Shown here: in pieces, positions 4,185-38,344 of the stretch
Layout: each line of letters begins with the position of its first letter
How positions within the stretch are numbered: position 1 is the first letter of the stretch
IMG/VR virus record: IMGVR_UViG_2740892016_000005
DNA: 38,344 nt
Source: a virus
Lineage: Duplodnaviria > Heunggongvirae > Uroviricota > Caudoviricetes
Reading direction: 5' to 3' (one strand)
Translations under genes and position numbers: made by a program
The notes under the pieces: model-generated
What the model was told of the DNA's origin: nothing
Databases searched by the model: none
Seen by the model: the letters and a program-made list of their open reading frames with translations, nothing else

Positions 4185-4185
4185 G

Positions 4186-5735: not shown

Positions 5736-5742
5736 TGGTTTG

Positions 5743-7194
5743 TTATTTTATTTTGCTTACTATATTTGTAATAAGTGGGTCAAATTTCTCATCAATAATT
5801 TCAATATATTTTTTTATTGCTAAAGTTCTAATTACTTCCTCCTCACATTCTGCTTCTTTAGCAATTGCTTGAGTGTAATTGTGATGATCACTAATCCCTT
5901 CCTTTTTTATTAACCAATCAAAATCAATATGATACTCCTTGTAGAGGAATTTTTTTACTTCCTCATGTTGAAATACTTCTACTTCTGGTGGCCTATTGCC
6001 AGGGAAAGAAAATAAATCATCTTTAATGTTTTCTCCAACATCTGCATCTCTTACGGCAATAACATTAAGGCCTGCTTTCTTGAATACCTCGACTGCTTGT
6101 CGGACTGCATCTTTATCTCCAATATCAGTGATTTGAATGGATTTAAGAATGTCTCTCCGCTTTGCTCTAATTACTTCACTAAGTAAAACTTTTGCAAACT
6201 GGTCTTCTACGCAAATATGCAGCCCTTTAAACTGCCCATCAGACAGTATTGATCTCACATGAGTTGTTGAAATTCCATCTTTGATATAGACACCAGTCTG
6301 ATCTCTAATAAGTAATTTTCGTGCATCAGGAGGTAAAGCATTTAATATCACACTTGAGTGTGTTGATAATATTATTTGATGTTTTCTACGTTGACATACT
6401 TCCATTAAATATTTTGCAAATTCATACTGTGCGCTTTCATGAAGAGATGTTTCTGGTTCTTCTAGTACGAAAAGACTTTGCTCTGGAGCTGTTTCAAGCA
6501 TATCAACCGTATAAAGAACTCTTCCTTCGCCAAACCCCATGTTATTTTCAGAATAAGAATACCCAAGTCTTTCAACAATACCAATTTCTGAACGACGTGC
6601 TCTATGAGAAATTCCTTGGAATGCGATATCATCATATGGATGACCTATTATTTTTGCCATCTTCAATATTACTGAATGGTCGACGCTTCTTCTCTCTGTT
6701 AAATCAAAGTCTTTACCGCCATAAACACTTATATCTCTACGTTCTACTTTTGGAATATAGACAGTAAAACCAATGTAAAAACAGTGTCTTTCTGGTTGTC
6801 TTTTATATCCAGACCAAGAAGACTTTATGCGAGTGACAGTCACATCTTGTGTTTTCGTTGAATCATTTGTTTCATATTTATAAATGACACTGGCGTCATT
6901 ATCGAAAGGGGCTGGATCGGCTTTAGATACAGGGAAAAAATCTTTAATATATAATCTCTTATATTCACGGGCTGTAACTGGTTTTTTATATGCGCATATT
7001 GCTAACTGCCCAAGAGTGCTTTTCCCAGCGCCGTTTAGCCCTGATATTGCAGTTACCGGAAAATTTATATTTAATGTTAGTTTTTTTATTCCTCGAAATC
7101 CATTTATCTCTAGACTTTTAATTACGGAGCCAAAGTTTGAGTATCTATTTTTATCAAAGTACATGCATTTTAGTATATTTTTTATGTCTGACAT
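5743..7194 (-). CDS. ABC-type (AAA_15/21-like) ATPase with C-terminal TOPRIM-like domain; OLD/PARIS-like candidate defence nuclease
   Basis: 483 aa. Walker A GLNGAGKST; Walker B/D-loop SLFVLEEPETSLH; H-loop ILSTHSS; C-terminal acidic motifs LHICVEDQ and VIAVRDADVGE consistent with TOPRIM. Gene is AT-rich relative to flanks; RBS aggaaag; own promoter-like signals. Confidence 0.85.
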   Translation of the reverse strand: MSDIKNILKCMYFDKNRYSNFGSVIKSLEINGFRGIKKLTLNINFPVTAISGLNGAGKSTLGQLAICAYKKPVTAREYKRLYIKDFFPVSKADPAPFDNDASVIYKYETNDSTKTQDVTVTRIKSSWSGYKRQPERHCFYIGFTVYIPKVERRDISVYGGKDFDLTERRSVDHSVILKMAKIIGHPYDDIAFQGISHRARRSEIGIVERLGYSYSENNMGFGEGRVLYTVDMLETAPEQSLFVLEEPETSLHESAQYEFAKYLMEVCQRRKHQIILSTHSSVILNALPPDARKLLIRDQTGVYIKDGISTTHVRSILSDGQFKGLHICVEDQFAKVLLSEVIRAKRRDILKSIQITDIGDKDAVRQAVEVFKKAGLNVIAVRDADVGENIKDDLFSFPGNRPPEVEVFQHEEVKKFLYKEYHIDFDWLIKKEGISDHHNYTQAIAKEAECEEEVIRTLAIKKYIEIIDEKFDPLITNIVSKIK

Positions 7195-7244
7195 TTTTTA
7201 TCTTTCCTGATATGAATGAGAGTTATCTTTAGAAAAACAATAAA

Positions 7245-7273
7245 TTTATAACATTTAGAGATGTATTCATCAA
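7245..7273 (-). promoter_or_regulatory. Sigma70-like promoter for the ATPase gene
   Basis: On the minus strand: -35 TTGATG, 17-bp spacer, -10 TATAAA, about 45 nt upstream of the ATG at 7194. Confidence 0.4.
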
Positions 7274-7458
7274 TGATTGGGTAAATATCGTGCATTTGTT
7301 GTTTTAAAATCAACCAAGAATGATTTTTATAATTATGTCAATTGCCTTATTATCAATATGGTAATGTTTTCTCAATCTAATTATTGCGGGGAATATATTA
7401 TTTACAATCGTAAATAATCAGATATGCTCTCAAGAGTGGTTACTTCGCCACACAACTT

Positions 7459-7484
7459 AAACCCGCCGTCGAGCGGGTTTTTTT
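7459..7484 (+). terminator. Intrinsic terminator
   Basis: AAACCCGC-cgtcga-GCGGGTTT stem-loop (8-bp stem) followed by a run of 7 T. Confidence 0.6.
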
Positions 7485-7606
7485 GTACCTGTAAACCTGG
7501 TGCAGTACGGTAAACACGCTGGTGGTCGTGAATACTGACTTTTTATCTTGCTGGCTTTTTAGACAAGAGTTATTGGTATGTCATGTTAACCAGAAGGAAA
7601 AAAGAC

Positions 7607-7801
7607 ATGCTAAAACAGCAAGATATGACAGAAACGGCGAAAGTTGTTTTTAATGAATTAAGCATCGAACCGGCAACAGTCGGGGAGATTGCACAAAACA
7701 CATATCTTTCACGCGAACGCTGTCAGTTAATACTGACCCAGTTGGTTATGGCGGGGCTGGCAGATTACCAGTTCGGCTGTTACAGACGCCTTCAGCAATG
7801 A
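7607..7801 (+). CDS. Small hypothetical protein, possibly winged-helix
   Basis: ORF 7583..7801 trimmed to ATG 7607 (RBS aagga); 64 aa; no motif firmly recognised. Confidence 0.4.
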   Translation: MLKQQDMTETAKVVFNELSIEPATVGEIAQNTYLSRERCQLILTQLVMAGLADYQFGCYRRLQQ

Positions 7802-17368: not shown

Positions 17369-17388
17369 GGCCCGTAAGGGCTTTTTTT
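17369..17388 (+). terminator. Hairpin plus T-run after the capsid gene
   Basis: GGCCC-gtaa-GGGC followed by TTTTTTT; short stem, so possibly a partial terminator. Confidence 0.45.
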
Positions 17389-17431
17389 GTACCTGAAATC
17401 AGCCCCTGAACGGGGCTGTGCGGAGACAGTT

Positions 17432-17755
17432 ATGGCAAAGAATTTTGTAGAAGAAGGAAAAACGGTGGCGATTGTTGCCAGTGCAGCCATCAGCAGCGGA
17501 GATCTGGTGCAGGTGGGCGATGTTTTTGCGGTGGCGCTGACCGATATTCCACAGGGTGAAACAGGCGACGGCATGACCGAAGGTGTGTTTATGCTGCCTA
17601 AGCTGAAAACGGATGACATGAAAACGGGTAAGAAGGTTTATCTGAAGTCCGGAAAAGTTCAGCTGACTAACAGCGGCTCTGATCCGCTGGTCGGGGTTGT
17701 CTGGACAGATGCTGGAACCAGTGCAGAAGAAGTGCCGGTAAAACTCAATGTCTGA
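17432..17755 (+). CDS. Small head-associated protein (possibly DUF2190-like decoration or connector protein)
   Basis: ORF 17387..17755 trimmed to ATG 17432 (RBS ggag); 107 aa; assignment by position and vague family resemblance only. Confidence 0.45.
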   Translation: MAKNFVEEGKTVAIVASAAISSGDLVQVGDVFAVALTDIPQGETGDGMTEGVFMLPKLKTDDMKTGKKVYLKSGKVQLTNSGSDPLVGVVWTDAGTSAEEVPVKLNV

Positions 17756-18023
17756 TCCCTTTTCCCGGCTGGCAGCGCGTATGGATGCTATCACGGTCAG
17801 AAAGATGGGAAAGACAGCCTCGATTAATGATGTCGATATGACTGTGATCCCGGGAGAAACACTGGCAGAGCTGAATGCTCTGTCCGGACCTGCGGTCTCT
17901 CTGGTGGTGTTTTCTTCGGGATACCGCCCACGGCGCGGGGATCGCGTTGTTTATGACGGACAACAATGGACGGTCACACGGCATGAACGCTTTAACGGTA
18001 AGCCAATGATCTTTATTGAGTAA
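17748..18023 (+). CDS. Head-tail connector, gpFII-like
   Basis: 91 aa; YRPRRGDRVVYDGQQWTVTRHERFNGKP resembles the lambda FII C-terminal region (RQLRRGDTLTIGEENFWVDRVSPDDGGS). Confidence 0.6.
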   Translation: MSDPFSRLAARMDAITVRKMGKTASINDVDMTVIPGETLAELNALSGPAVSLVVFSSGYRPRRGDRVVYDGQQWTVTRHERFNGKPMIFIE

Positions 18024-18034
18024 AGAGGTGTGGG

Positions 18035-18625
18035 ATGAAGGGGCTTGAGAATGCCATCCGCAATCTGAACAGCCTTGATACCCGTATGGTGCCACAGGCC
18101 AGCGCATGGGCGATAAACCGTGTGGCACAGAAAGCGGTCTCGGTTGCCACCCGGCAGGTTGCCGGGAATACCGTTGCGGGAGATAACCAGGTGAAAGGGA
18201 TCCCCCTGAAACTGGTACGTCAGCGTGTCCGGGTGTTTAAAGCCAGTCCGTCAGGAAAAATGACGGCCAGGATCCGCGTTAACCGGGGCAATCTGCCCGC
18301 CATCAAACTGAACACAACACGGCGGCGTGCTGGTGAAGGACTGAGAGTGGGAAAATACTTTTTCCGGGGGGCATTTGTTCAGCAACTGGCGAATGGCCGC
18401 TGGCATGTTCTGAGGCGTCTTCCTGAAGCGCGTTTTGCAACAGGGCATGACCATCAGGGCAGGCCAAGAAAAAATCGTCTTCCTGTGGAGGTAGTGAAAA
18501 TCCCGCTGTCCGGACCGCTGACACAGGCATTTGAAGATGCCCGCGACCGCATCATTGCTGCGGAAATGCCGAAACAGCTGGGGTATGCACTGAAACAACA
18601 ACTGAGGTTATGGCTGACCCGATGA
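18035..18625 (+). CDS. Z: Tail completion protein Z
   Basis: 196 aa; aligns by eye along its length with lambda gpZ (MKGLENAIRNL...RIRVNRGNLPAIKL...QQLANGRWHVLRR...VVKIPLSGPLTQAF...LGYALKQQLR). Confidence 0.8.
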   Translation: MKGLENAIRNLNSLDTRMVPQASAWAINRVAQKAVSVATRQVAGNTVAGDNQVKGIPLKLVRQRVRVFKASPSGKMTARIRVNRGNLPAIKLNTTRRRAGEGLRVGKYFFRGAFVQQLANGRWHVLRRLPEARFATGHDHQGRPRKNRLPVEVVKIPLSGPLTQAFEDARDRIIAAEMPKQLGYALKQQLRLWLTR

Positions 18626-19023
18626 ACCGACATACACAAATCCGCCAGGTCGTACTGGCACGCCTTCGGGAACAGTGTGGAGACAGCGCCACGTTTTTTG
18701 ACGGGCTTCCGGCATTTGTTGATGCGCAGGAACTGCCTGCCGTGGCGGTGTGGCTGAGTGATGCTCAGTACACCGGAAAAATGACGGATGAAGATGACTG
18801 GCAGGCTGTTCTGCATATTGCTGTCTTCATCCGGGCACAGGCACCGGATTCAGAGCTGGATACGTGGATGGAGAGCACCATTTTCCCGGCCCTGAATGAT
18901 GTACCGGCACTTTCCGGACTCATCGACACCCTGATCCCACTCGGTTTTAACTATCAACGTGATAATGAGATGGCCACCTGGGCGATGGCGGAAATCACGT
19001 ACCAGATCACGTACACGAATTAA
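18622..19023 (+). CDS. U: Tail terminator protein U
   Basis: ORF 18610..19023 trimmed to ATG 18622 (ATGA overlap with Z stop); ATFFDGLPAFVDAQELPAVAVWLSDAQYTG...PDSELDTWMES matches lambda gpU. Confidence 0.8.
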   Translation: MNRHTQIRQVVLARLREQCGDSATFFDGLPAFVDAQELPAVAVWLSDAQYTGKMTDEDDWQAVLHIAVFIRAQAPDSELDTWMESTIFPALNDVPALSGLIDTLIPLGFNYQRDNEMATWAMAEITYQITYTN

Positions 19024-19033
19024 GGAGGTGGCA

Positions 19034-19777
19034 ATGACCACACCAAATCCACTGGCAAAGACGAAAGGTGCGGGGACGACGTTCTGGATGTATACCGGCA
19101 ACGGCGACGCATTTGCGAACCCTTTGTCGGACACTGACTGGCTGCGTCTTGCGATGGTGAAGGATCTGCAACCTGGCGAAATGACCGCTGATGCAGAAGA
19201 TGATACTTATCTCGATGATGAAGATGCAGACTGGAAAACGACAACCCAGGGGCAGAAATCAGTCGGTGATACTTCGGCGACGCTGGCCTGGCGTCCGGGT
19301 GACAGCGGGCAGAAAAAACTGGTTCAGTTGTTCGACTCCGGTGAAGTCTGCGCGTTTCGTATCAAATATCCCAACGGTACTGTTGATGTTTTCCGTGGCT
19401 GGCTGAGTTCACTGGGTAAAACCATTGCCTCAAAAGACGTGATGACCCGCACTGTGAAAATCAGCGGTGTGGGGCGTCCGTATCTGGCAGAGGAAGGCAC
19501 TGAAACAGTGAGCGTTACCGGGCTGACGGTGGCACCGGCATCTGCCAGTGTAAAAGTGGGAGCAACCACCACGCTGACCTTTACAGTAAAACCTGACGGA
19601 GCCAGTGACAAAGCGATCAGTGTGCATTCGTCAGATCCACAGACTGCCACGGTGACCCTGAACGGGCTTGTAGCCACGGTGAAAGGCGTGAAGCAGGGCA
19701 GTGTCAGCATTGTGGGCATGACCGCTGACGGGAATTTTGTGGCTGTGGCTGCGGTGACTGTCAGCGCCGCAGGTTAA
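19034..19777 (+). CDS. V: Major tail protein V with C-terminal Ig-like domain
   Basis: ORF 18959..19777 trimmed to ATG 19034 (RBS aggaggtg). Strongly lambda gpV-like (GAGTTFWMYTGNGDAFANPLSDTDW...YLDDEDADW...NGTVDVFRGW...). Confidence 0.9.
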   Translation: MTTPNPLAKTKGAGTTFWMYTGNGDAFANPLSDTDWLRLAMVKDLQPGEMTADAEDDTYLDDEDADWKTTTQGQKSVGDTSATLAWRPGDSGQKKLVQLFDSGEVCAFRIKYPNGTVDVFRGWLSSLGKTIASKDVMTRTVKISGVGRPYLAEEGTETVSVTGLTVAPASASVKVGATTTLTFTVKPDGASDKAISVHSSDPQTATVTLNGLVATVKGVKQGSVSIVGMTADGNFVAVAAVTVSAAG

Positions 19778-19797
19778 CAGGACGATACTCATCATTT

Positions 19798-19821
19798 GCC
19801 CCGGTTATCCGGGGCTTTTTT
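19798..19821 (+). terminator. Intrinsic terminator after the major tail gene
   Basis: GCCCCGG-ttat-CCGGGGC followed by TTTTTT. Confidence 0.55.
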
Positions 19822-19834
19822 GCAGGTGGAGAAC

Positions 19835-20224
19835 ATGATGTTTCTGAAACAGGGCACGTTTAATTATGAAAAACAGTCCGTGGTGCTCAGTGAGCTGTCC
19901 GGGCTGCAGAGAATTGAATATCTGGCGTTTGTTCAGCAGCGAACGGCAAAGTTTGATGCCGGTGAGGGAGAACTGCCGGAGGCTGAACGACAGATTGCTT
20001 TTCTGCGGATGGGGATGGATATCAATGCCTGGCTGGTTTCCCGCTCACTGTGGAATGCGGATCAGTCTAAGGATGTAGAGACGCTTTGCGCATCCGTTAT
20101 TACAACATGGTCGTATGATGCCCTGGGTGCGGGGGCGGAGATGGTTCTGTCGCTGAGCGGTATGGGGGCCATTGATAATGCCGGGGATGATGAGCATGAG
20201 GCGCTGACGCCGGAAAAGTCCTGA
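19835..20224 (+). CDS. G: Tail assembly chaperone G
   Basis: ORF 19796..20224 trimmed to ATG 19835 (RBS aggtggag); begins MMFLKQ like lambda gpG (MFLK...); contains LSELSGLQRIEYLAF. Confidence 0.8.
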   Translation: MMFLKQGTFNYEKQSVVLSELSGLQRIEYLAFVQQRTAKFDAGEGELPEAERQIAFLRMGMDINAWLVSRSLWNADQSKDVETLCASVITTWSYDALGAGAEMVLSLSGMGAIDNAGDDEHEALTPEKS

Positions 20225-20562
20225 CGCGGGAAATGCAGTTTGTCATGCGGCTTGCCCGGGAGTTCCGGCGGGCAGACTGGCGGCGGATGCTGTCGGAAAT
20301 GTCGGCCACTGAGCTTGGTGAGTGGGGCGATTATTTCCGGATGCAGAGCTTCAGTGATGTGTGGATGGATGCGCAGTTTGCCTCGCTGAAGGCATTGATC
20401 GTGAGAATGGTGTCCGGCAGCAGTGATGCTGCGGTGGCTGATTTCAGCCTTTTACCGGAAGAGAACGGGATACCGGAGCGAACGGACGAAGAACTGATGC
20501 ATCTTGGGGAAGGTATTTCCGGAGGTGTGCGTTATGGACCAGATAGCCAACCTGGTCATTGA
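20212..20562 (+). CDS. T: T-frame extension of the tail assembly chaperone (G-T fusion by programmed -1 frameshift)
   Basis: The -1 frame is closed by TGA at 20197-20199 and open from 20200 to 20562, so a shift must occur at 20200-20224. The only slippery-like heptamer there is GGAAAAG at 20212-20218 (lambda uses GGGAAAG). The T frame overlaps the tape-measure start. Confidence 0.6.
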   Translation, partial: GKVLTREMQFVMRLAREFRRADWRRMLSEMSATELGEWGDYFRMQSFSDVWMDAQFASLKALIVRMVSGSSDAAVADFSLLPEENGIPERTDEELMHLGEGISGGVRYGPDSQPGH

Positions 20563-23500
20563 TTTGGGGATTGATGCGGCAGAGTTTAAAAATGAAATCC
20601 CCCGTATCAAAAACCTTCTGAATGGTGCAGCCAGCGATGCAGAACGGTCTTCTGCCCGTATGCAGCGTTTTATGGAGCGTCAGACTCAGGCCGCCCGGCA
20701 GACAACGCAGGCGGCGTCTTCGGCTGCAACAGCCGCATCCGTCCATGCGCAGACGGTGGAGAAGAACGCACAGGCTCATGAACGCATGGCCCGCGAGGTG
20801 GAGAAAACCCGCCAGCGCATGGAGGTGCTGAGCCAGAAAATGCGCGAGGAACAGGCGCAGGCCATGGCTCTGGCGGAGGCTCAGGATAAAGCGGCTGCTG
20901 CGTTTTATCGTCAGATTGACAGTGTGAAACAGGCCAGTGCGGGTCTGCAGGAATTACAGCGTATTCAGCAGCAGATCCGACAGGCCAGAAACAGTGGCGG
21001 GATTGGTCAGCAGGATTATCTGGCGCTGATTTCTGAGGTTACGGCGAAAACCCGTGTTCTTACACAGGCTGAGGAAGAGGCTACCCGACAGAAAGTGGCG
21101 TTTATCCGTCAGCTTAAAGAGCAGGCAACCCGCCAGAATCTTTCTTCTTCTGAGTTGCTTCGTGCTAAGGCTGCCCAGCTGGGGGTAAGCAGTGCTGCAG
21201 AAGTGTATATCCGCAAAATGGAGCAGGCAGGAAAAGCCACGCATTCGCTGGGGCTGAAAAGTGCAGCGGCCCGTCAGGAGATAGGCGTTCTGATAGGTGA
21301 ACTGGCCCGCGGAAATTTAGGTGCGCTGAGGGGATCCGGAATAACGCTGGCTAACCGTGCCGGGTGGATAGACACATTGATGTCACCGAAAGGCATGATG
21401 CTTGGCGGGGTTATTGGCGGTATTGCCGCGGCTGTCTATGGTCTGGGTAAAGCCTGGTATGACGGTCAGAAGGAGGGGGAAGAATTTAACCGCCAGCTGT
21501 CGCTGACGGGGCATTATGCCGGAGTCACTGCCGGGCAGCTGTGGACGCTCAGTCGTGCTATTTCCGGGAATGGTATCACGCAACATGCTGCAGCCGGTGC
21601 GCTGGCTCAGGTGGTGGGGAGTGGTGCATTTCGTGGAAACGATATCGGTATGGTGGCGAGAGCTGCCGCACAGATGGAGCGATCGGTTGGCCAGTCGGTC
21701 AGCGATACCATAAATCAGTTTAAGCGGCTGAAGGATGATCCTGTAAATGCCGCGAAGTCTCTGGACAATGAGCTGCATTTTCTTACTGCCACTCAGCTTG
21801 AGCAGATACGCGTCCTTGGAGAGCAGGGGCGGTCCAGTGATGCGGCACGGATAGCCATGTCTGCACTGGCAGAGGAAACCGGTCGGCGTACTGCGGATAT
21901 TGATAATAACCTCAATGCGCTGGGCAGTACGCTGCAAACTTTGTCTGACTGGTGGAAGCAGTTCTGGGATGCGGCCATGAATATTGGTCGTGAAGATTCG
22001 CTGGATGCGCAGATTGCCACTTTGCAGGAGAAAGTGTCGCGGGCGAAAAGACTCCCCTGGACGGCATCATCTTCTCAGGTTGAATACGATCAGCAGCGTC
22101 TTAACGATCTTCAGGAGAAAAAACGCCAGAAGGATTTGCAGGATGCAAAAGAGCAGGCAGAGCGGAATTATCAGGAGCAACAGAAACGCCGTAATGCTGA
22201 AAATGCTGCACTGAACCGGATGAATGAAACGGAAGCTGCACGACATCAGCGTGAAATTGCGCGTATTAATGCCATGCAGTACGCCGATCAGGCTGTCAGG
22301 GATGCGGCGATACAACGTGAAAATGAACGTTACGAGAAAGCCCTGGCATCCGGTAAGAAAAAAACACGCGAAACCCGTAATGATGAGGCCACCCGGTTAT
22401 TGCTGCAGTACAGTCAGCAACAGGCACAGGTGGAAGGACAGATTGCTGCTGCAAGACAGTCAGCAGGCATTGCCACTGAAAAGATGACAGAAGCGCATAA
22501 ACAGCTTCTGGCTCTGCAGCAGCGCATCAGCGATCTGGACGGGAAAAAACTGACGGCAGATGAAAAGAGTGTGCTGGCCCGTAAAGATGAACTGATTCAG
22601 GCACTGACGCTGCTGGATGTAAAACAGCAGGAGCTTCAGAAACAGACGGCACTCAACGATCTGAAGAAAAAAACAATTCAGCTGACCAGTCAACTGGCTG
22701 AAGAAGAGCGCGCTCAGCGTCAGCAACATGACCTGGATATCGCCACGGTTGGTATGGGTGATCAGCAGCGGCAGCGATATCAGGTACAACTGAGTCTTCG
22801 CCAGAAATACCAGCAACAGCTGGAGCAGTTGAGGCGGGATAGTGAGCAGAAAGGGACATATAACACGGATGACTACAGAAAGGCCGAGCAGGCGCTGACG
22901 GAGAGCCTGAACCGACAACTGAATGAGAATCGCCGTTACTGGCAACAGCTTGAAATTGCTCAGGGTAATTGGAAAAACGGAGTCCTGCGTGCACTCCAGA
23001 ATGTCACTGAGAATGCGGATAACACAGCCGGGACAGTGGAACAGTTGTTCACGTCTGCGTTCAGTAGCATGAGTGACTGGCTGGCGACATTCTGTACTAC
23101 AGGCAAACTCAATTTCAAATCTTTTACTTCTTCTGTGCTGTCAGATATGTCCAGAATCATGGCTCAGATAGCTTTAATGAAAGCGGTAAAAGGCATTGCT
23201 TCCGCGCTGCCTTTTGATTTTGTAGCCAATGCTGATGGCGGTGTTTATCAGTCGGCTGATTTGAGTCGCTACAGTGGCACGGTGGTTAACCGTCCGACGT
23301 TTTTTGCTTTTGCAAAAGGCGCGGGTGTGATGGGGGAAGCTGGACCTGAAGCCATTCTGCCACTGCGTCGTGGTGCTGACGGTAAGCTGGGGGTTGTGGC
23401 GGATATTGGTGGTTCAGGTATGGCGATGTTTGCCCCGCAGTACAACATCGAGATCAATAACGATGGCACGAACGGGCAGATAGGTCCGGCTGCCCTGAAG

Positions 23501-23590
23501 GTGGTTTATGACCTTGGGAAAAAAGCGGCAGCGGACTTTATGCAACAGCAGGCCCGTGATGGTGGTCGGTTAAGTGGAGCATATCGGTAA
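20534..23590 (+). CDS. H: Tail tape measure protein H
   Basis: ORF 20504..23590 trimmed to ATG 20534 (RBS ggaggtg); ~1018 aa, coiled-coil and Q/A/R-rich, with the conserved C-terminal region typical of lambda H. Confidence 0.9.
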   Translation: MDQIANLVIDLGIDAAEFKNEIPRIKNLLNGAASDAERSSARMQRFMERQTQAARQTTQAASSAATAASVHAQTVEKNAQAHERMAREVEKTRQRMEVLSQKMREEQAQAMALAEAQDKAAAAFYRQIDSVKQASAGLQELQRIQQQIRQARNSGGIGQQDYLALISEVTAKTRVLTQAEEEATRQKVAFIRQLKEQATRQNLSSSELLRAKAAQLGVSSAAEVYIRKMEQAGKATHSLGLKSAAARQEIGVLIGELARGNLGALRGSGITLANRAGWIDTLMSPKGMMLGGVIGGIAAAVYGLGKAWYDGQKEGEEFNRQLSLTGHYAGVTAGQLWTLSRAISGNGITQHAAAGALAQVVGSGAFRGNDIGMVARAAAQMERSVGQSVSDTINQFKRLKDDPVNAAKSLDNELHFLTATQLEQIRVLGEQGRSSDAARIAMSALAEETGRRTADIDNNLNALGSTLQTLSDWWKQFWDAAMNIGREDSLDAQIATLQEKVSRAKRLPWTASSSQVEYDQQRLNDLQEKKRQKDLQDAKEQAERNYQEQQKRRNAENAALNRMNETEAARHQREIARINAMQYADQAVRDAAIQRENERYEKALASGKKKTRETRNDEATRLLLQYSQQQAQVEGQIAAARQSAGIATEKMTEAHKQLLALQQRISDLDGKKLTADEKSVLARKDELIQALTLLDVKQQELQKQTALNDLKKKTIQLTSQLAEEERAQRQQHDLDIATVGMGDQQRQRYQVQLSLRQKYQQQLEQLRRDSEQKGTYNTDDYRKAEQALTESLNRQLNENRRYWQQLEIAQGNWKNGVLRALQNVTENADNTAGTVEQLFTSAFSSMSDWLATFCTTGKLNFKSFTSSVLSDMSRIMAQIALMKAVKGIASALPFDFVANADGGVYQSADLSRYSGTVVNRPTFFAFAKGAGVMGEAGPEAILPLRRGADGKLGVVADIGGSGMAMFAPQYNIEINNDGTNGQIGPAALKVVYDLGKKAAADFMQQQARDGGRLSGAYR

Positions 23591-23919
23591 TGGAGACGTT
23601 TCACTGGAAAGTGCGCCCGGATATGAATGTGGTATCAGAGCCGAAAGTGGTGACAGTGAAGCTGGGCGATGGTTATGAACAGCGTCGTGCGGCGGGACTG
23701 AATAACCAGTTGTCGACTTACAGCGTGACGATACGTGTTCGTAAATGTGAACACCCATCTTTAAAAGCCTTTCTGGAACGGCACGGTGGCGTCCGCGCAT
23801 TTCAGTGGACGCCACCTTATGACTGGAAGCCGATCAGGGTGGTTTGTCGTAAATGGTCGGCAAGCGTGGGGGCGTTGTGGGTAACCATAACGGCAGATTT
23901 TGAACAGGTCGTGGCATAG
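23590..23919 (+). CDS. M: Minor tail protein M
   Basis: 109 aa; lambda gpM-like throughout (METFHWKVRPDM...GDGYEQR...TYSVT...HGG...WTPPYDWKPI...FEQVV). Confidence 0.9.
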   Translation: METFHWKVRPDMNVVSEPKVVTVKLGDGYEQRRAAGLNNQLSTYSVTIRVRKCEHPSLKAFLERHGGVRAFQWTPPYDWKPIRVVCRKWSASVGALWVTITADFEQVVA

Positions 23920-23928
23920 GAGGCTCTG

Positions 23929-24627
23929 ATGCAGGATATTCCACAGGAAACACATCATGAGACGACACGCCTCACTCAGTCAGCCCAGGTGGTGCTCTGG
24001 GAAATCGATCTGACAGAGGTCGGTGGTGAACGTTATTTTTTCTGTAATGAGCAGAACGAAAAAGGTGAGCCGGTTACCTGGCAGGGGCGGCAGTATCAGG
24101 CATACCCCATTCAGGGGACGGGATTTGAACTGAACGGCAAGGGCAGTGCTGCCCGTCCGACACTGACGGTTTCTAACCTGCACGGAATGGTCACCGGGAT
24201 GGCGGAAGACCTGCAGAGTCTGGTCGGCGGAACGGTGGTCAGGCGTAAGGTTTACGCCCGTTTTCTGGATGCGGTGAACTTCGTCAACGGAAACAGTGAC
24301 GCCGATCCGGAGCAGGAGGTGATCAGCCGCTGGCGCATCGAGCAGTGCAGCGAACTGAGCGCGGTCAGTGCCTCTTTTGTACTGTCCACGCCGACGGAAA
24401 CGGACGGTGCTGTTTTTCCGGGGCGCATCATGCTGGCTAATACCTGCACCTGGACCTATCGCGGTGATGAGTGCGGTTATCACGGTCCGGCTGTCGCTGA
24501 TGAATATGACCAGCCGACGTCCGATATCACGAAGGATAAATGCAGCAAATGCCTGAGTGGTTGTAAGTTTCGCAATAACGTCGGCAACTTTGGCGGCTTC
24601 CTTTCCATTAACAAACTTTCGCAGTAA
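23929..24627 (+). CDS. L: Minor tail protein L
   Basis: 232 aa; almost identical to lambda gpL as recalled, including the C-terminal Cys cluster. Confidence 0.9.
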   Translation: MQDIPQETHHETTRLTQSAQVVLWEIDLTEVGGERYFFCNEQNEKGEPVTWQGRQYQAYPIQGTGFELNGKGSAARPTLTVSNLHGMVTGMAEDLQSLVGGTVVRRKVYARFLDAVNFVNGNSDADPEQEVISRWRIEQCSELSAVSASFVLSTPTETDGAVFPGRIMLANTCTWTYRGDECGYHGPAVADEYDQPTSDITKDKCSKCLSGCKFRNNVGNFGGFLSINKLSQ

Positions 24628-24631
24628 TCCC

Positions 24632-25375
24632 ATGACACAGACAGAATCAGCGATTCTGGCGCACGCCCGGCGATGTGCGCCAGCGGAGTCGTGCGGCTTC
24701 GTGGTGAGAACGCCGGAGGGGGAAAGATATTTTCCCTGCGTGAATATCTCCGGTGAGCCGGAGGCGTATTTCCGGATGTCGCCGGAGGACTGGCTGCGGG
24801 CAGAGATGCAGGGTGAGATTGTGGCGCTGGTCCACAGCCACCCCGGTGGTCTGCCCTGGCTGAGTGAGGCTGACAGGCGGCTGCAGGTGCAGAGCGATTT
24901 GCCTTGGTGGCTGGTCTGCCGGGGTGAGATTCATAAATTCCGCTGTGTGCCACATCTTACCGGGCGGCGCTTTGAGCACGGGGTGACGGACTGTTACACG
25001 CTGTTCCGGGATGCTTATCATCTGGCGGGGATTGAGATGCCGGATTTTCATCGCGGGGATGACTGGTGGCGTCACGGTCAGAATCTCTATCTGGATAATC
25101 TGGAGGCCACAGGGCTGTATCAGGTGCCGTTGTCAGCGGCGCAGCCGGGCGATGTGCTGCTGTGCTGTTTTGGTTCATCGGTGCCGAATCATGCCGCCAT
25201 TTACTGTGGTGACGGCGAGCTGCTGCACCATATTCCTGAACAACTGAGCAAACGAGAGAGGTATACCGACAAATGGCAGCGACGCACACACTCCCTCTGG
25301 CGTCACCGGGCATGGCGCGCATCTGCCTTTACGGGGATTTGCAACGATTTGGCCGCCGCATCGACCTTCGTGTGA
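24632..25375 (+). CDS. K: Tail assembly protein K (MPN/JAB plus NlpC/P60 domains)
   Basis: ORF 24557..25375 trimmed to ATG 24632; near-identical to lambda gpK as recalled (MTQTESAILAHARRCAPAESCGFVV...HSHPGG...). Confidence 0.9.
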   Translation: MTQTESAILAHARRCAPAESCGFVVRTPEGERYFPCVNISGEPEAYFRMSPEDWLRAEMQGEIVALVHSHPGGLPWLSEADRRLQVQSDLPWWLVCRGEIHKFRCVPHLTGRRFEHGVTDCYTLFRDAYHLAGIEMPDFHRGDDWWRHGQNLYLDNLEATGLYQVPLSAAQPGDVLLCCFGSSVPNHAAIYCGDGELLHHIPEQLSKRERYTDKWQRRTHSLWRHRAWRASAFTGICNDLAAASTFV

Positions 25376-25920
25376 AAACGGGGGCCGAAGCCATCCGGGC
25401 GCTGGCCACACAGCTCCCGGCGTTTCGTCAGAAACTGAATGACGGCTGGTATCAGGTGCGCATTGCCGGGCGTGATGCAGGTGAAACCGAATTATCTGCC
25501 CGTCTTAATGAGCCGCTGGCAAATGGTGTCGTGATCCATATCGTGCCGCGTCTGGCGGGAGCTAAAAGTGGCGGTGTATTTCAGGTGGTGCTGGGGGCGG
25601 CGTTGATTGCGGTGGCATGGTGGAACCCTGTGGGCTGGCTGGGTGCCGCGGCTGTATCGGGCATGTATGCGGCAGGGGCCAGTATGATCCTGGGCGGTGT
25701 GGCGCAGATGCTGGCACCGAAAGCCAGGACGTCCACGGCAGCCAGTACAGATAACGGCAAACAGAACACCTATTTTTCCTCACTGGATAACATGGTTGCT
25801 CAGGGCAATGTTTTGCCTGTTCTGTACGGTGAAATGCGTGTGGGGTCGCGGGTGGTTTCTCAGGAGATCAGCACGGCAGACGAAGGGGACGGTGGTCAGG
25901 TTGTGGTGATTGGTCGCTGA
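25273..25920 (+). CDS. I: Tail assembly protein I
   Basis: 215 aa; N- and C-terminal regions near-identical to lambda gpI as recalled; overlaps the K 3' end as in lambda. Confidence 0.9.
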   Translation: MAATHTLPLASPGMARICLYGDLQRFGRRIDLRVKTGAEAIRALATQLPAFRQKLNDGWYQVRIAGRDAGETELSARLNEPLANGVVIHIVPRLAGAKSGGVFQVVLGAALIAVAWWNPVGWLGAAAVSGMYAAGASMILGGVAQMLAPKARTSTAASTDNGKQNTYFSSLDNMVAQGNVLPVLYGEMRVGSRVVSQEISTADEGDGGQVVVIGR

Positions 25921-32749: not shown

Positions 32750-33433
32750 ATGGTTACAAAAACAGTAATTCCGGGAGACATCACCACGCTAAAGGGAGAT
32801 ATTTCCTCAATTAACGGAAAAGTATCAACGCTTCAGACTGAGATGACCAGTGCAAAGCAGGATATCAGCTCCAGATACACAAAAACTGAAGTTGATAATA
32901 AGCTGAAAAACAAAGTGGAAGTGAACGATCTGGAAAGTGGTCGTTATGGCGGAGATTTTTATCCACTGACAGGTCGTGAAGCGTTTTATTTATGGAATTT
33001 GGCCACGACTACAGCGGCGGCAAACCTTTATCTTAATCCTGACCCTGCAATTTCGTCTGTGCTGCGGTCAACATCGTCTATCCGCTATAAACATTCAGTA
33101 GAGACGATAGATTCAGAGCACGCCGATCTCATTTTCAAGATGCGCCCTGTGTGGTACAGGTCGCAATGCGAAAATGACAGGCGCGATTGGGGATTCTATG
33201 GATTGATTGCCGAGGAAGTAGGAGAAATTGCCCCCCAGTTTGTACACTGGCGATCAGCTAACGAAGATGATGCACCGGAAGCTATTTCCAGCAATGGCCT
33301 TGTTGCCGAAGGTGTAATGTACGAACGTCTGGTTGTTCCACTGATTCACCATATCCAGAAACTGACTGAAAGAGTTGATGAACTTGAGTCAGAATTGAAG
33401 TTGTTATCAACTTCCCGAAGCGATATCGGATAA
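32750..33433 (+). CDS. Short tail fibre/spike-like protein with C-terminal S74-type intramolecular chaperone domain
   Basis: 227 aa; C-terminal ~120 aa (SSIRYKHSVETID...DLIFKMRPVWY...GFYGLIAEEVGEIAPQFV...VMYERLVVPLIHHIQKLTERVDELESELKLL) follow the pattern of endosialidase-type autoproteolytic chaperone domains. Confidence 0.7.
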   Translation: MVTKTVIPGDITTLKGDISSINGKVSTLQTEMTSAKQDISSRYTKTEVDNKLKNKVEVNDLESGRYGGDFYPLTGREAFYLWNLATTTAAANLYLNPDPAISSVLRSTSSIRYKHSVETIDSEHADLIFKMRPVWYRSQCENDRRDWGFYGLIAEEVGEIAPQFVHWRSANEDDAPEAISSNGLVAEGVMYERLVVPLIHHIQKLTERVDELESELKLLSTSRSDIG

Positions 33434-33443
33434 AGGAGGAGTA

Positions 33444-33731
33444 ATGGATATAACACCTTTTCTTCATGCGCTTTGTGCTGTGGCTGCGCAGGTACTGATT
33501 GGTCTTTTTACCGGAAACTGGGCTTACGGGGCGATAGCCGGTTGTACATTCTTCATTGCGCGGGAACACACCCAGGCAGAATATCGCTGGATTGAAATGT
33601 TCGGGCATGGCAAGCGGATTAACATGCCGTGGTGGGGCGGTTTTGATCCACGTGCATGGGATGTGGCAAGTCTGATGGATTTTGCGGTGCCGGCGGTGGC
33701 GTGTCTGCTGGTCTGGCTGTTTATCCGTTAA
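33444..33731 (+). CDS. Small integral membrane protein, function unknown
   Basis: 95 aa; strong RBS aaggagg; predicted hydrophobic segments at both ends (LCAVAAQVLIGLF, AVPAVACLLVWLFI). Confidence 0.5.
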   Translation: MDITPFLHALCAVAAQVLIGLFTGNWAYGAIAGCTFFIAREHTQAEYRWIEMFGHGKRINMPWWGGFDPRAWDVASLMDFAVPAVACLLVWLFIR

Positions 33732-34096
33732 ACATAAAAAGCCGCAGCAACTTGTCGTGGCAGAATACTGCGGCTGGCTGGTGAACTTCCGATAATTTGA
33801 TTATTAAATAATTTCCAGCTGTTATTGATTTTACGTATTTTTTGTATGGGAGAATTTGCACCTCCTCCCATCGACCATCTATGACTGTATGCCACTATCT
33901 ATAGGACTACTATGTGCCAGAAACGGATATTACTGTGTATGGTTAATTCTGCCTGTCAAATAACTTACGTTCATCAAATAATCGAAATTATGACTTAGCT
34001 CAACAATTAGGTTTAGCATGGGGTCATATGACTAGAGTGCAGCGACTTGCTGCAATAATTTAATAAGAATAAAAAATGCCAACTTATGCTAATTAA

Positions 34097-34302
34097 GGCG
34101 GTAATTCGGGAATAGTGTTTTATGAGATTACTCCCGATGTTATCACAGTACAGTTTAAAGATGGATGGAAATACGTTACGATTCTACAAAACTGGGTGCT
34201 TCAACGGTCTCTAAGATGAAAGAGTTAGCCCAGGATGGGCATGGACTAAATAGTTTTATTAGTAGTGTGGTTAAGAAAAATTTCTCACGTAAATACCTTT
34301 AA
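34097..34302 (+). pseudogene. Degraded KTSC-domain-like gene remnant (no start codon, apparent frameshift)
   Basis: Frame A gives GGNSGIVFYEITPDVITVQFKDGWKYVT, resembling the KTSC core (YD...L.V.F.nG..Y.Y). A different frame continues ...ASTVSKMKELAQDGHGLNSFISSVVKKNF. No ATG in frame after the upstream stop. Confidence 0.25.
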
Positions 34303-34532
34303 TTTTAATTGAGGGTGGTAAGGACTATCACCCTCATAATTCTTCACCATTCAATCAAGAGCAATTCAAGGCGATTTGTTCTTATTGTACATGGTCAGTT
34401 AGTTAGCACTTCGTAATTTATTGAATAGAAGACTTTTGGAACAGCATCTGCACTCGTGCTTATCGCCCGGCAGACTTAGCCAGAATAGTCTCGAGCATTT
34501 CTGGTTCGTTGCCTTTAGCTGTATCAATATTT

Positions 34533-36311
34533 TCACCCCCTAGATCTTGCTGAAAGCTCATCTTTATAAGCCATTCTTGGCGTGTAAAAATTATGGAATG
34601 CCTTACCTATTGCACCATTGAAAAGCTTAAGCAATGGTTTATTGCTCCCTGCGTTTAAAATATTCCTCATTGCTATACCAGGGTATGGATCTATGTAATA
34701 TATTTGTTTGATCCCTAATTGATACGCTTTTTTAGAACATAATTCACAAGGGCTTGCTGTTGTGAACAAAAAACCATTCTGTATACCAACGCCACCATAC
34801 TTAGATATTTGTAAGAAAGCATTCTCTTCAGCATGAAGTGATCTTGTAAAAACTTGATTAGCGTTAGATTTTATTTTGTCAATAATAGCAAACTCATCAT
34901 CATTTAACTTATGTTCGACCCGTAGATCTTCTTTGTATTTATCATCAAGGATATTATTCCATTCTGTTTTAAAACAAAATGGAGCTCTCATTCCTTTATT
35001 TTTAACATCTAAAAAAATAATCTTAGTGCTATCTATTTTTCGAATGAAACTATTTTCGTTCTTTTCGAATTCAGAGTAAGCAATATCATCAATCCCCTCA
35101 GACAAATCAAACCTATCCCTTAAAGAGCAAGGAACTTGACCACTTGGTACATCATTCCAACCAATAGACTTAATTGAAAATGAACTATCAGATACTGCAG
35201 CGCCTACCTGCCTGGATATACAACCAGAGTTCAACTTAGCTGTATATGCTATCTGCATGCAACGTTCAACATTTGATGGAGTTATTATACCAGGACGCTT
35301 CATTAATGAAGTGAATTTAATTAATTGATTAGCCAATCCTGAGTACCGACAAACAACATTTTCCTCTTCCGGATTCTCAACATAGATGTCTGATATTTCT
35401 AAACAAGACTGTATATTCTGATATATATATGATGACTTCTCATCCAAAGATGATTTACGGTATTCTTTTGCATCAATATCTTTTATCTCAGCATCAGTTA
35501 AACCTTGTTCTCTAAGCCTTTGATGCCTGTAATGCTCTTCTGTAGAAACAGCCATTAAATAAAATGATGAGTATCTATCTTGGAAGTATGTTGCTTCGAA
35601 CGGATTTCTTATAGCATCAATAACTATATAAATAGGTTTCTTTTCTCCAGTTTTTGTGTTCTTTTCTTTTGCTAAGGTTCTTAATCTTTGAATTATATCA
35701 TTTATTTTTTTAGGAAGAAAAAAACCATGGAAATCATCACTAAATGAACTGTCATGGTACATCCCACTAGATCTATAATTATTACCTATAGCTTGATATA
35801 GCTTTATATAGTCAGCCTTGTTCTTAAATATGGATTTAATTTGTGTATTCGCTTTTATTAGATATTCATTTATGAATTTTATCTTATCATCTATATCATG
35901 ATCAGAGCTTTCATCTTTAGCTTTAATTTCTTTTAGTATAGATTCAAGATCATTAACTGTTGACTCTAGGACTCTTTGGTCATTACCTAACTCCGTCACT
36001 TCCCGAATAAATTTATTCAGCTTACCATCAAAGTCCTTTGATAAACACAATGTCAGTATGGAACTTGCTTGTATTTTTATAAATGGAACCCATGACACGG
36101 AAAAATATTTAAATAGAACCCGCTCTTTTCTTTCTTCATTCGACTTAGGGTAATCACCGTTAAATAGAGAATGCTTTATCTCACTTGATTCTGATGACAG
36201 TATATTAGAAACTGTTGAACAGCCTGACCCCGTCCTCCCTGTTAATCCTATAATTAGGAAATCATCATCTTCACTATATATTTTACTCAGTGCGTCATTA
36301 TAAAAACCCAT
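34533..36311 (-). CDS. P-loop NTPase / dCMP-deaminase fusion protein; AvcD/DCD-like candidate nucleotide-depletion defence
   Basis: 592 aa. N-terminal deviant P-loop GLTGRTGSGCST; C-terminal deaminase motifs ERCMQIAYTAKLNSGCISRQVGAAV, HAEENA and PCELC (zinc ligands). AT-rich; RBS ggag; own promoter-like -10. Confidence 0.9.
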   Translation of the reverse strand: MGFYNDALSKIYSEDDDFLIIGLTGRTGSGCSTVSNILSSESSEIKHSLFNGDYPKSNEERKERVLFKYFSVSWVPFIKIQASSILTLCLSKDFDGKLNKFIREVTELGNDQRVLESTVNDLESILKEIKAKDESSDHDIDDKIKFINEYLIKANTQIKSIFKNKADYIKLYQAIGNNYRSSGMYHDSSFSDDFHGFFLPKKINDIIQRLRTLAKEKNTKTGEKKPIYIVIDAIRNPFEATYFQDRYSSFYLMAVSTEEHYRHQRLREQGLTDAEIKDIDAKEYRKSSLDEKSSYIYQNIQSCLEISDIYVENPEEENVVCRYSGLANQLIKFTSLMKRPGIITPSNVERCMQIAYTAKLNSGCISRQVGAAVSDSSFSIKSIGWNDVPSGQVPCSLRDRFDLSEGIDDIAYSEFEKNENSFIRKIDSTKIIFLDVKNKGMRAPFCFKTEWNNILDDKYKEDLRVEHKLNDDEFAIIDKIKSNANQVFTRSLHAEENAFLQISKYGGVGIQNGFLFTTASPCELCSKKAYQLGIKQIYYIDPYPGIAMRNILNAGSNKPLLKLFNGAIGKAFHNFYTPRMAYKDELSARSRG

Positions 36312-36361
36312 AAAATCTCCAGTAATAATGAAGGATTTAAAATAAAAAGCTCTACTTAGAT

Positions 36362-36400
36362 GTTTTTATTATATAAAATACATCTCCATTCTTCATTAGT
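36362..36400 (-). promoter_or_regulatory. Promoter-like region for the deaminase gene
   Basis: Consensus -10 TATAAT on the minus strand (36369-36374) about 55 nt upstream of the ATG; -35 poor. Confidence 0.3.
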
Positions 36401-37295
36401 ATATTACGAATCTGCAACTTTCACACACGATTTTTCATCGGATGTACTAATATTAGCAAGCGGAGCTTTCTTTTCCCAGACAGCTTCCATCCGCTGCATC
36501 GCGGCAACCCGTGCGTAGCCGATGTCGATTAAGTAATACATCACCCAGAGATACTCCCGTAACCTAAATCATCTTCAAAACGATATATATCTCTGACTTT
36601 CACGTATAGTACGACATCTCGCGGCACATGGCATACACGGACTCTTAAGCCACCTTAATCGCCTGATTCAGGGAATTCACTGCAGGCTTCTACTGCTCCA
36701 GCCCAGTTTGTTTTAACTCCTGCTCAACCTGAGTCAAAGCTGTACTAACTGATTTTTTGTCTGTCTCAGTCATGTTGCCGGAAGCACTGTCCAGCTCACG
36801 GATAACACCACTGGGCTTGTATTTGAAATCGCGTGACTATGAGCATTACGATCTTGATCCGCTGCACTGGAAGGATTATTACGACGTGTGGTTAACCCAG
36901 CAAAGGGCATTCTGAGGACTTGTGACGCAATCTACTGTCTTACCGTCTGGTGGAGATATTCCTTGCGATGCGCAAGAAGTTTAAAGGTGTCATTCCACCC
37001 AATAAATTCTGACCTGTTTCCAATTGATTAACACACTGTAAAGCGAGTAATGCCCCACGTCTGTATCACAATTGCTAACTTCCGTTTCTCGCACAGAGAG
37101 GACCTTCAGTTCAGTCCGATGGTCTGCTCTGTGCCAAAAGCGGACGTTAAGCTTACCAACTCATATTTTAAGGTCATAGGTGCGTATAAACGAAGTGCCG
37201 CGCTTAGGAGTAGTGAATTTACAGACTTACAAAATCATTTATTTCAGGCCAATTTATGTAATGGCATAATCAGGTTGGTGAAAGAGAGGGCGGAA

Positions 37296-37880
37296 ATGGA
37301 TAAAAAATTTAAAAATCAGATAGTAGATAGCGATATTGCACTTTTATTGCTTAAACACAGGAAGGCTCGCAATTTGACTGTAACAGAGCTTGCTCAACGA
37401 TCGGGCGTCAGTCAGGCCATGATTAGTAAGATTGAACGAGGCATCTCCAGCCCTAGTGCAACTATCCTTAGCCGCCTGGCCAACGCCATGAATGTAACGC
37501 TATCTAAACTCTTTGCAGAGCTTGAGCAACATCAGAATTCCCTGGTTCGTGTTGCTCATCAGCAACAGCACTGGACGGATGAGCAATCAGGCATCACCCG
37601 TTGGTCTTTGTCTCCTGCGGGGGCATGCCCGGAACTGATCAAAGTTGAAATCCCTGCAATGGGTGAGCTGACGATACCCGCCTCCGCAAATGAGCATCTT
37701 TCCGGGCAAACGCTTTGGATGATGAGTGGCAGCCTTGATTTTCGAGTCAAAAATCAGACCCATCATTTACGTGCCGGTGACTGTCTTGCCCTTACCTTTG
37801 CAAGCGAGTACCAAATGAGCAATCCAGATAGTGAGCAGAGCTGTTCTTACATCGTGGCTTTTAGCCAAAAAAATCAATGA
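37296..37880 (+). CDS. XRE-family HTH transcriptional regulator with C-terminal cupin domain
   Basis: ORF 37050..37880 trimmed to ATG 37296 (RBS gagagggcgg). HTH LTVTELAQRSGVSQAMISKIERG; C-terminal beta-rich cupin-like region. Probably host-encoded. Confidence 0.7.
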   Translation: MDKKFKNQIVDSDIALLLLKHRKARNLTVTELAQRSGVSQAMISKIERGISSPSATILSRLANAMNVTLSKLFAELEQHQNSLVRVAHQQQHWTDEQSGITRWSLSPAGACPELIKVEIPAMGELTIPASANEHLSGQTLWMMSGSLDFRVKNQTHHLRAGDCLALTFASEYQMSNPDSEQSCSYIVAFSQKNQ

Positions 37881-37900
37881 TATCTTCTTTGCCACATTGG

Positions 37901-38344
37901 TTACATGTTATTGGCCATTCTCAGATGCAACAAGGGGTATGGCCTTCCCTGATTATCCAGCTCGGAACGCCCTGATACCTGAAAACCCATATGCTGATAA
38001 AACCCTACAGCCTGCTGGTTTTGTTCATTTACATCAACGCTTAGCTCTGGATGCAGCGCCAGTGCATGAGAGATCAAACGTTTTCCGACGCCAAGTCCGC
38101 GAGCAGAGCCTGCTACAAAAAGTGCCTCCAGATGCCCCTCATGCAAAAACATAAATCCTAGCGGTTGGTCATCCTGATTTGTTGCAACCCATACAGGAGT
38201 TTCTGAGAAAAAGCCGATAACTTCTTTTTCGATTTCTTGTCGGTCATGACCTGTAAGAAAGTCGTGGGTAGCATCCACTGAACTCTTCCAGATTTGTATG
38301 ATCTCTGATGCTTCAGATGGTCGTGACATTCTGATATCTAACAT
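37901..38344 (-). CDS. GNAT-family N-acetyltransferase
   Basis: 147 aa; acetyl-CoA-binding motif region ARGLGVGKRLISHAL; the start codon abuts the window edge, so the true 5' end may lie outside. Divergent from the regulator gene. Confidence 0.75.
   Translation of the reverse strand: MLDIRMSRPSEASEIIQIWKSSVDATHDFLTGHDRQEIEKEVIGFFSETPVWVATNQDDQPLGFMFLHEGHLEALFVAGSARGLGVGKRLISHALALHPELSVDVNEQNQQAVGFYQHMGFQVSGRSELDNQGRPYPLLHLRMANNM

Follow-up and report, generated by a model that had tools for sequence, protein, structure and literature searches.

What is the function of the AT-rich gene that lies at the far end of a lambda-like Escherichia coli prophage, is transcribed against the phage late genes and is annotated in RefSeq as encoding a 'hypothetical protein'? 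We address this question for the IMG/VR virus record IMGVR_UViG_2740892016_000005 (Caudoviricetes), a stretch of 38,344 nucleotides (nt) that is analyzed here at full length and is referred to below as the window. The minus strand of the window contains, at positions 34533-36311, an open reading frame (ORF) with an ATG start that encodes a protein of 592 amino acids (aa; WP_061089084.1). Judging by its sequence, this protein is a member of the AvcD/DCD family of anti-phage deoxycytidylate deaminases, a divergent and under-annotated one, and we consider it highly probable that it is a functional single-polypeptide enzyme of this family, encoded by a moron that the lysogen expresses. Neither the family nor its mechanism nor its occurrence on mobile elements is new, and PADLOC would call the gene directly. 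The novelty of the present observations is modest and consists in a divergent, under-annotated sublineage restricted to Enterobacterales, its insertion and substitution signature, a compact cassette, the lack of an evident RNA antitoxin, and the position at the end of a lambdoid prophage.

A predicted two-domain deaminase of the AvcD/DCD family

Chance alone is by far insufficient to explain an unbroken ORF of 1.8 kb in DNA with a GC content of 33%, together with hidden Markov model (HMM) E-values as low as 1e-127. The gene is preceded by a GGAG Shine-Dalgarno sequence at 36317-36320, and its GC content is 32.8%, compared with 50-60% for most of the surrounding prophage and ~52-55% for the prophage as a whole. 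The N-terminal nucleotide-kinase-like domain (aa 1 to ~340; 35292-36311, minus strand, as are all features of the protein) contains a large helical insertion (aa ~82-221), a Walker-B-like motif, YIVID232, and a deviant Walker A motif, G25-RTGSGC31-ST33 (36213-36239), in which Cys replaces Lys. The predicted C-terminal zinc-dependent dCMP/dCTP deaminase domain (aa ~347-592; 34536-35273) contains the catalytic signature H493-A494-E495-E496 (34824-34835), with the His as a zinc ligand and the Glu as the proton shuttle, and the zinc ligands of P521-C522-E523-L524-C525 (34737-34751). The ORF, the deviant P-loop domain followed by a zinc deaminase with the HAE and PCxxC motifs, and the strong AT-richness are exactly as described in an earlier note on this DNA. 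Its placement of the gene as cargo distal to the tail fibres also stands: the gene is located beyond J, lom and the tail-fibre genes of the lambda-like prophage, on the opposite strand, within the terminal ~2.6 kb.

The same note had proposed the AvcD/DCD architecture, to be checked by HMM or structure comparison, and this proposal is borne out by several lines of evidence. The PADLOC profile PDLC02373 (dCTPase) matches aa 8-585 (E=2.2e-127, 424.5 bits), and the NCBIfam model NF041025 'anti-phage dCTP deaminase' is covered end to end (model positions 1-437; 370.8 bits, E=9e-111). The predicted fold consists of two domains. The protein is 38% identical, collinearly and over the full length (E=4e-123), to the E. 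coli AW1.7 dCTP deaminase (WP_045268677.1, encoded at a locus that was reached by distant blastn of E. coli genomes), which has been validated experimentally (Tal et al., 'Antiviral defense via nucleotide depletion in bacteria', bioRxiv 10.1101/2021.04.26.441389), and all residues mutated in that work are conserved in the query. Among Pfam domains, dCMP_cyt_deam_1 is detected at aa 347-539 (E=2.5e-12), along with a weak match to AAA_18 at the P-loop. The architecture that characterizes the family, a kinase-like domain fused to a zinc deaminase in a protein of >350 aa, is thus present in the 592-aa protein. So is the association with mobile elements or defence islands along with a patchy distribution: copies occur in prophage and plasmid contexts and, in AW1.7, on an island, and the gene of the window is found in 6 of the 5,426 complete E. 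coli genomes. The PDB copy that we searched contained no solved structure of any family member, and the literature search yielded neither an AvcD structure nor a specific report of such a lambdoid arrangement.

The deviant P-loop and the catalytic residues

The absence of the canonical P-loop lysine, which the earlier note had pointed out as a feature of this protein, is confirmed (Cys31) but is not peculiar to it. In the set of 4,569 homologues detected at E<=1e-5, of which 120 listed sequences were used for signature comparison, the motif G[RQ]TGSGCS is found in 118 of these 120, and C31 is invariant in the alignments. In the AW1.7 enzyme, the G29A/C30A mutation in the 'nucleotide-binding motif' abolishes both defence and dCTP depletion (Tal et al., 10.1101/2021.04.26.441389); these residues align to G30 and C31 of the query. 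At the equivalent P-loop position, AvcD of Vibrio cholerae contains Ser52, and the S52K mutation inactivates the enzyme (Hsueh et al.). Given that the motif is nearly universal among the listed homologues and essential in AW1.7, the deviant P-loop is a family hallmark and not a sign of divergence.

The deaminase signature is equally well preserved. H493, E495, C522 and C525 are invariant across the aligned homologues, and the HAE-X28-PCXXC spacing is identical to that in V. cholerae AvcD (H382/E384...C411/C414). The AW1.7 'zinc-binding' mutants C370A and C401A lose defence (Tal et al., 10.1101/2021.04.26.441389); the corresponding residues of the query, C364 and C395, which bound the segment at 35127-35222, are invariant as well and also align to C19 and C49 of the T4 dCMP deaminase.

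A divergent Enterobacterales subclade under purifying selection

Only four 90%-identity clusters among the 4,569 homologues are more than 57% identical to the query. The closest one (P0001, 96%) is represented by a protein from a metagenome contig and includes the query along with members from E. coli, Yersinia enterocolitica and Proteus terrae; the others are a copy on a Rep3/TraM plasmid (P0002, 90%), a chromosomal copy with flanks of 40% GC (P0003, 71%) and a protein from Morganella morganii (P0004, 59%). The query and these four share an insertion of 26-27 aa (26 aa in the query, aa 453-478; 34878-34955) between the CFKxEYN and NQVxTRSLHAEE motifs, just before the catalytic helix; this insertion is predicted to be helical at low to moderate confidence (predicted local distance difference test score, 43-74). 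The subclade is further marked by the substitutions D299N, R306I, H488F, H550N, L575F and L589R, at alignment positions where conservation in the other homologues reaches 97% or more. Almost all of the other 116 listed homologues lack this signature, and the insertion is absent from these 116. Scans of genomes and metagenome contigs recovered only distant relatives (37-48% identity) or fragments, and no further loci of the subclade.

The ratio of nonsynonymous to synonymous substitution rates (dN/dS) is 0.090 in the comparison with the locus of the 96% relative (L012), 0.090 with the plasmid locus (L011), 0.068 with locus L005 and 0.084 with locus L009, and 54 of the 78 differences from the 96% relative fall on third codon positions. 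These low ratios, of 0.07-0.09, indicate strong purifying selection and therefore a coherent, presumably functional sublineage that spans E. coli, Yersinia, Proteus and Morganella. The earlier note had left open whether the protein is a typical or a divergent member of the family: the sub-cutoff NF041025 score discussed below, the insertion and the six substitutions place it in a divergent subclade, and the P-loop itself is typical.

Two other groups of sequences were observed in the course of these comparisons. In several E. coli strains, including ST131, and in Morganella strains, there are genes split into two adjacent ORFs (~200 + 340 aa) or truncated to a 344-aa 'dCMP deaminase' (P0123/P0127, P0149, P0152 and P0159/P0160); such copies suggest recurrent inactivation, as expected of a costly or toxic defence gene. 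For proteins named 'anti-phage dCTP deaminase' on 4.6-kb E. coli plasmids (H82-H84), the alignment with the query is confined to aa 216-576 (~28% identity); they seem to represent a shortened variant without the first ~215 residues, which include the P-loop.

Boundaries and mobility of the deaminase cassette

DNA comparison with the related loci delineates a compact unit. The homology with the plasmid copy (87% identity) begins at the stop codon, includes 129 nt ahead of the ATG (34541-36440) and ends abruptly, whereas that with L012 spans 34519 to 37039 and that with the 71% and 59% relatives starts at the ATG. The mobile unit predicted from these boundaries is the gene with its leader of ~129 nt. 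The cassette also occurs at non-phage chromosomal sites. The plasmid copy, 90% identical at the protein level, is located directly after a type II restriction-modification (RM) module that consists of two methylases and a BpuJI_N/NOV_C endonuclease, a plasmid-borne mini defence island (1692-7611 of the Rep3/TraM contig, L011).

On the 3' side, the stop codon of the deaminase gene adjoins a block (34300-34520) that contains a hairpin (34310-34336); 28 further lambdoid prophages of E. coli contain this block, with 92.7% identity. Its position in those prophages is the early region, and the cargo gene that it directly follows on the 3' side is again reverse-oriented: SCU-113 has a gene for an Old-type nuclease of 626 aa (PADLOC Old, E=1.3e-55), and Es_ST80 retains a remnant. 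The block looks like a shared cassette boundary or a terminator for cargo exchange.

At the opposite end, the leader is followed by a prophage-specific non-coding spacer (36441-37121, minus strand) with 12% divergence and no third-position bias, and then by the right-hand prophage junction (37076-37149), a 32-nt imperfect inverted repeat (78% complementary) that contains the core GTCTGCTCTGTGCCA (37122-37136). This core is common to genomes with and without the deaminase module; across three junction types, it takes the form GTC[T/C]GCTCTGTGCCA (37122-37136). Genomes that carry genes for a helix-turn-helix protein and an acetyltransferase but lack the deaminase match the window from 37122 rightward, and other deaminase-bearing genomes match to 37147 and then diverge. 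The junction repeat may be a candidate att site, a terminator or a recombination hotspot. A search for attR found neither a repeat of at least 12 nt of the tRNA-Thr 3' end nor a left-end copy of the junction core, so the right boundary of the prophage rests on comparative breakpoints. Given the homology breakpoints on both sides, the deaminase cassette constitutes the terminal ~2.6 kb of the prophage.

Proposed mechanism, control and alternative explanations

What was obtained here comprises the architecture, HMM membership, conservation of the essential residues, fold, purifying selection, and the cassette and prophage context; the substrates, the trigger and the protection are those that would be expected from published homologues at no more than 38% identity. 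The proposed mechanism is as follows. The deaminase would be transcribed in the lysogen from its own promoter, counter to the late operon, and kept inactive in healthy cells until a lytic phage shuts down host transcription, which would activate the enzyme. The zinc domain (H493/E495/C522/C525) would then convert dCTP and dCMP into dUTP and dUMP; the N-terminal domain with the GSGC loop would be required as well, its probable role being regulation or the binding of nucleotides rather than phosphotransfer. The resulting collapse of the deoxycytidine nucleotide pool would stall phage DNA replication, thus protecting the lysogen and the resident prophage. Because a lambdoid phage needs the host RNA polymerase, induction of the prophage itself would not be expected to trigger the enzyme.

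AvcI (DifV) is an RNA of 152-174 nt that is located directly 5' of avcD on the same strand, is co-transcribed with it and originally came to attention as a small 'ORF'; it inhibits AvcD post-translationally in V. cholerae and in three tested homologues, although its sequence is not conserved between homologues, and its decay after phage-induced transcription shut-off activates AvcD (Hsueh et al.). In the window, the leader that travels with the gene (36312-36440, minus strand; it includes the Shine-Dalgarno sequence, and the homology with L011 ends at 36440) contains, by eye, a -10 element TATAAT (36368-36373) and a weak -35 element ATGAAG (36391-36396), which would give a 5' untranslated region of ~50 nt; a consensus promoter scan made no call upstream of the deaminase gene. 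The leader is 92-97% identical to that of L012, where neutral sites differ by 8-17%. An ORF-like stretch of 45-46 codons (36404-36544, minus strand), 92 nt upstream of the gene, has been annotated as a gene of its own in other assemblies. This region, within the proximal ~230 nt, is the only candidate, and a possible one, for the location of an AvcI. Further upstream, in the spacer, a small ORF (36564-36773) that is intact in L012 (69 aa) contains three in-frame stop codons and evolves neutrally.

The locus could encode a complete AvcID type III toxin-antitoxin pair in which a labile small RNA, encoded 5' of the gene on the same strand somewhere between 36312 and ~36544 or with an overlap into the 5' part of the coding sequence, inhibits the deaminase. 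We regard this as a real possibility, albeit one that we lean against, and it would refine the single-polypeptide explanation without replacing it; RNA decay driven by phage-induced transcription shut-off would free the enzyme. The location, strand and small-ORF appearance of the 36404-36544 stretch are those of AvcI elsewhere; relative to L012, conservation in the proximal ~230 nt is roughly double that of neutral sites, and ~836 nt of non-coding DNA accompany the gene in two E. coli contexts. Yet the upstream homology with the plasmid copy is limited to 129 nt, a length that must also accommodate the promoter and falls short of the minimal AvcI of 152-174 nt; in the 71% relative, only 60 bp separate the gene from its upstream neighbour and 82 bp from the downstream one, and neither this relative nor the 59% one has any upstream sequence in common with the query. 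Folding of the leader is not unusual in either copy (z=-0.3 and +1.0), and among the leader and five further upstream segments, z-scores near the gene range from -0.3 to +0.7; only the 145-nt stretch 36981-37125 (minus strand), which covers the left arm of the junction repeat, stands out (z=-2.84). An Rfam scan of 33400-38344 (E<=1) produced only a spurious match of a palindromic miRNA model at the junction, on both strands, and the upstream region shows no similarity to that of AW1.7. Because the AvcI sequence is not conserved even among the validated systems, its absence is not demonstrable in silico. It is also conceivable, but rather unlikely in our assessment, that the subclade is a regulatory variant of AvcD that is independent of an AvcI RNA, with the insertion serving as an autoinhibitory or phage-sensing element. 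The marks that bear on this notion are the 26-27 aa insertion, the joint loss of His in H488F/H550N and the D299N/R306I pair. If the notion is correct, the 129-nt leader plus gene could be a single-component nucleotide-depletion cassette hopping between prophages, plasmids and chromosomes.

Metabolic dCMP deaminases, phage ones among them (T4, 1vq2; S-TIM5, 4p9c; PBCV-1, 7fh4), provide the solved structures nearest to the protein, which might suggest a metabolic gene of the T4 Cd/ComEB type that serves the phage by raising the dUMP/dTTP supply during lytic growth. We consider this very improbable: with the ComEB model TIGR02571, whose cutoff is 219.45 bits, the protein reaches only 36.6 bits, and the match is confined to aa 488-543; fusion to a kinase-like domain that bears the GSGC loop is what distinguishes the defence family; the gene runs counter to the late operon in a moron position, in a prophage that otherwise encodes no nucleotide metabolism; the cassette is also found outside phages, in the chromosome and, beside an RM system, on a plasmid; and there is no close relative of the deaminase among 50,697 sequenced phage genomes. 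The same structural and sequence neighbours, with dCMP deaminases at the top and only weak Pfam hits, speak against an enzyme that edits DNA or RNA instead of free nucleotides, be it a polymorphic toxin or a TadA-like deaminase. The mobile unit consists of one gene, with no secretion, targeting or immunity partner, and homologues have been shown to act on dCTP and dCMP, so that such an activity seems most improbable. Finally, the gene could be a decaying, non-functional relic in a defective prophage. According to RefSeq, the gene for the ClpP-like protease/major capsid protein (15318-17345) contains an internal stop, and the integrase gene is frameshifted (4253055-4254174 of the record, outside the window); split or truncated deaminase copies exist in other strains, and the NCBIfam score is sub-threshold. 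The intact frame, the retention of all catalytic residues and the dN/dS of 0.09 even against the 96% relative leave this explanation with hardly any credence, and the adjoining small ORF, unlike the deaminase gene, is clearly decayed. The prophage is probably defective, with its defence cargo still intact.

Several observations nevertheless weigh against the identification of the protein as a functional anti-phage deaminase of the AvcD/DCD type. Its NF041025 score, 370.8 bits, falls under the equivalog cutoff of 400 bits, which is a curation threshold and not a biological feature. Other family members also score below this cutoff (P0005, 391.5; P0052, 385.6), and P0052 nevertheless bears the NCBI name 'anti-phage dCTP deaminase'; P0090 (401.1) and the AW1.7 enzyme (449.2) exceed it. 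The 'hypothetical protein' label assigned by the RefSeq annotation pipeline (PGAP) results from this sub-cutoff score. The six replaced residues, two of them His, and the insertion near the active site imply that the substrate range or the regulation could differ from those of characterized homologues. The split or truncated copies in some strains also count against this identification, and so does the failure of Rfam, upstream homology, folding and the AW1.7 upstream comparison to identify an AvcI-like RNA.

Other cargo of the prophage and the adjacent island

Apart from the deaminase, the window contains additional genes of potential relevance for defence. A GC-poor patch (0.36-0.40) flanked by the genes for the Q antiterminator and for lysis encodes, at 5743-7194 on the minus strand and counter to the phage operons, a 483-aa 'ATP-dependent nuclease' that matches PADLOC HEC-04 (E=3.9e-47) along with models of the ATPase-Toprim/AriA/GajA type; this HEC-04 candidate is likely to be a second defence moron of the same prophage. 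Two DNA methyltransferase genes on the plus strand (1993-2646 and 7951-9003), one encoding a phage N-6-adenine methyltransferase and the other a 'DNA-methyltransferase', may represent anti-restriction or epigenetic cargo. A 95-aa hydrophobic ORF (33444-33731, plus strand), which follows the last gene with a tail-fibre domain and is kept in all contexts of the prophage, has no match in PADLOC. Directly beyond the right end of the window (16575-25676 of locus L001; record positions 4298586-4307687), another island comprises a full type I RM system (hsdR/M/S), the toxin-antitoxin pair AbiEi/AbiEii and a fragment of an integrase. With this island adjoining the window, the thrW region of the strain is a stacked defence locus.

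Significance

The members of the subclade described here, a sublineage of a validated defence family, are labelled 'hypothetical protein' or generically 'dCMP deaminase' and include proteins of extraintestinal pathogenic E. coli from blood and cerebrospinal fluid. Because these proteins score just under the equivalog cutoff, defence inventories that are built on RefSeq product names miss them. The locus would also be a clean case of a lambdoid prophage that carries nucleotide-depletion immunity as a terminal moron, in addition to the HEC-04 candidate, and the tight edges of the cassette, together with the 3' block that also flanks the Old-nuclease cargo, illustrate the swapping of defence genes among lambdoid phages. 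As a canonical RNA antitoxin is not evident, the subclade could reveal how AvcD enzymes are kept off.

Comparison with known systems

Among the characterized systems, stand-alone dCMP deaminases (T4 Cd, 1vq2; Streptococcus mutans, 2hvv; cyanophage S-TIM5, 4p9c; the bi-DCD of PBCV-1, 7fh4) are proteins of 130-190 aa without a fused kinase-like domain and have metabolic roles under allosteric control by dCTP and dTTP. The AvcID system of V. cholerae consists of AvcD (VC0175) and the AvcI small RNA (Hsueh et al., bioRxiv 10.1101/2021.03.31.437871; PLoS Pathog 2023, PMC10511110); published mutations that make this AvcD insensitive to AvcI are E123K, A126T, K201R, K511E and Q514R. V. cholerae AvcD and the query share a P-loop-kinase-like domain without the Walker A lysine, the HAE-X28-PCXXC signature and carriage on mobile elements, and the activity of the former on dCTP and dCMP is the one that would be expected of the latter. 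The two proteins differ in size, 532 aa as opposed to 592 aa, and AvcID is defined by its RNA antitoxin, whereas none was identified at the query locus.

A validated counterpart in E. coli is the DCD of strain AW1.7 (Tal et al., 10.1101/2021.04.26.441389). Both proteins combine a kinase-like domain with a deaminase domain and share the GRTGSGC loop, the cysteines equivalent to C370 and C401, and the motifs NQVxTRxLHAEENAFLQ and TTASPCELC; the AW1.7 gene is likewise single, AT-rich (33.8% GC) and located on a mobile island, with an integrase and tRNA-Phe. The differences concern the 26-aa insertion and F488, where AW1.7 has His, the NF041025 score, with AW1.7 above the cutoff (449 bits) and the query below it (371 bits), and the carrier, a tRNA-Phe island in one case and the end of a lambdoid prophage in the other, with unrelated upstream regions.

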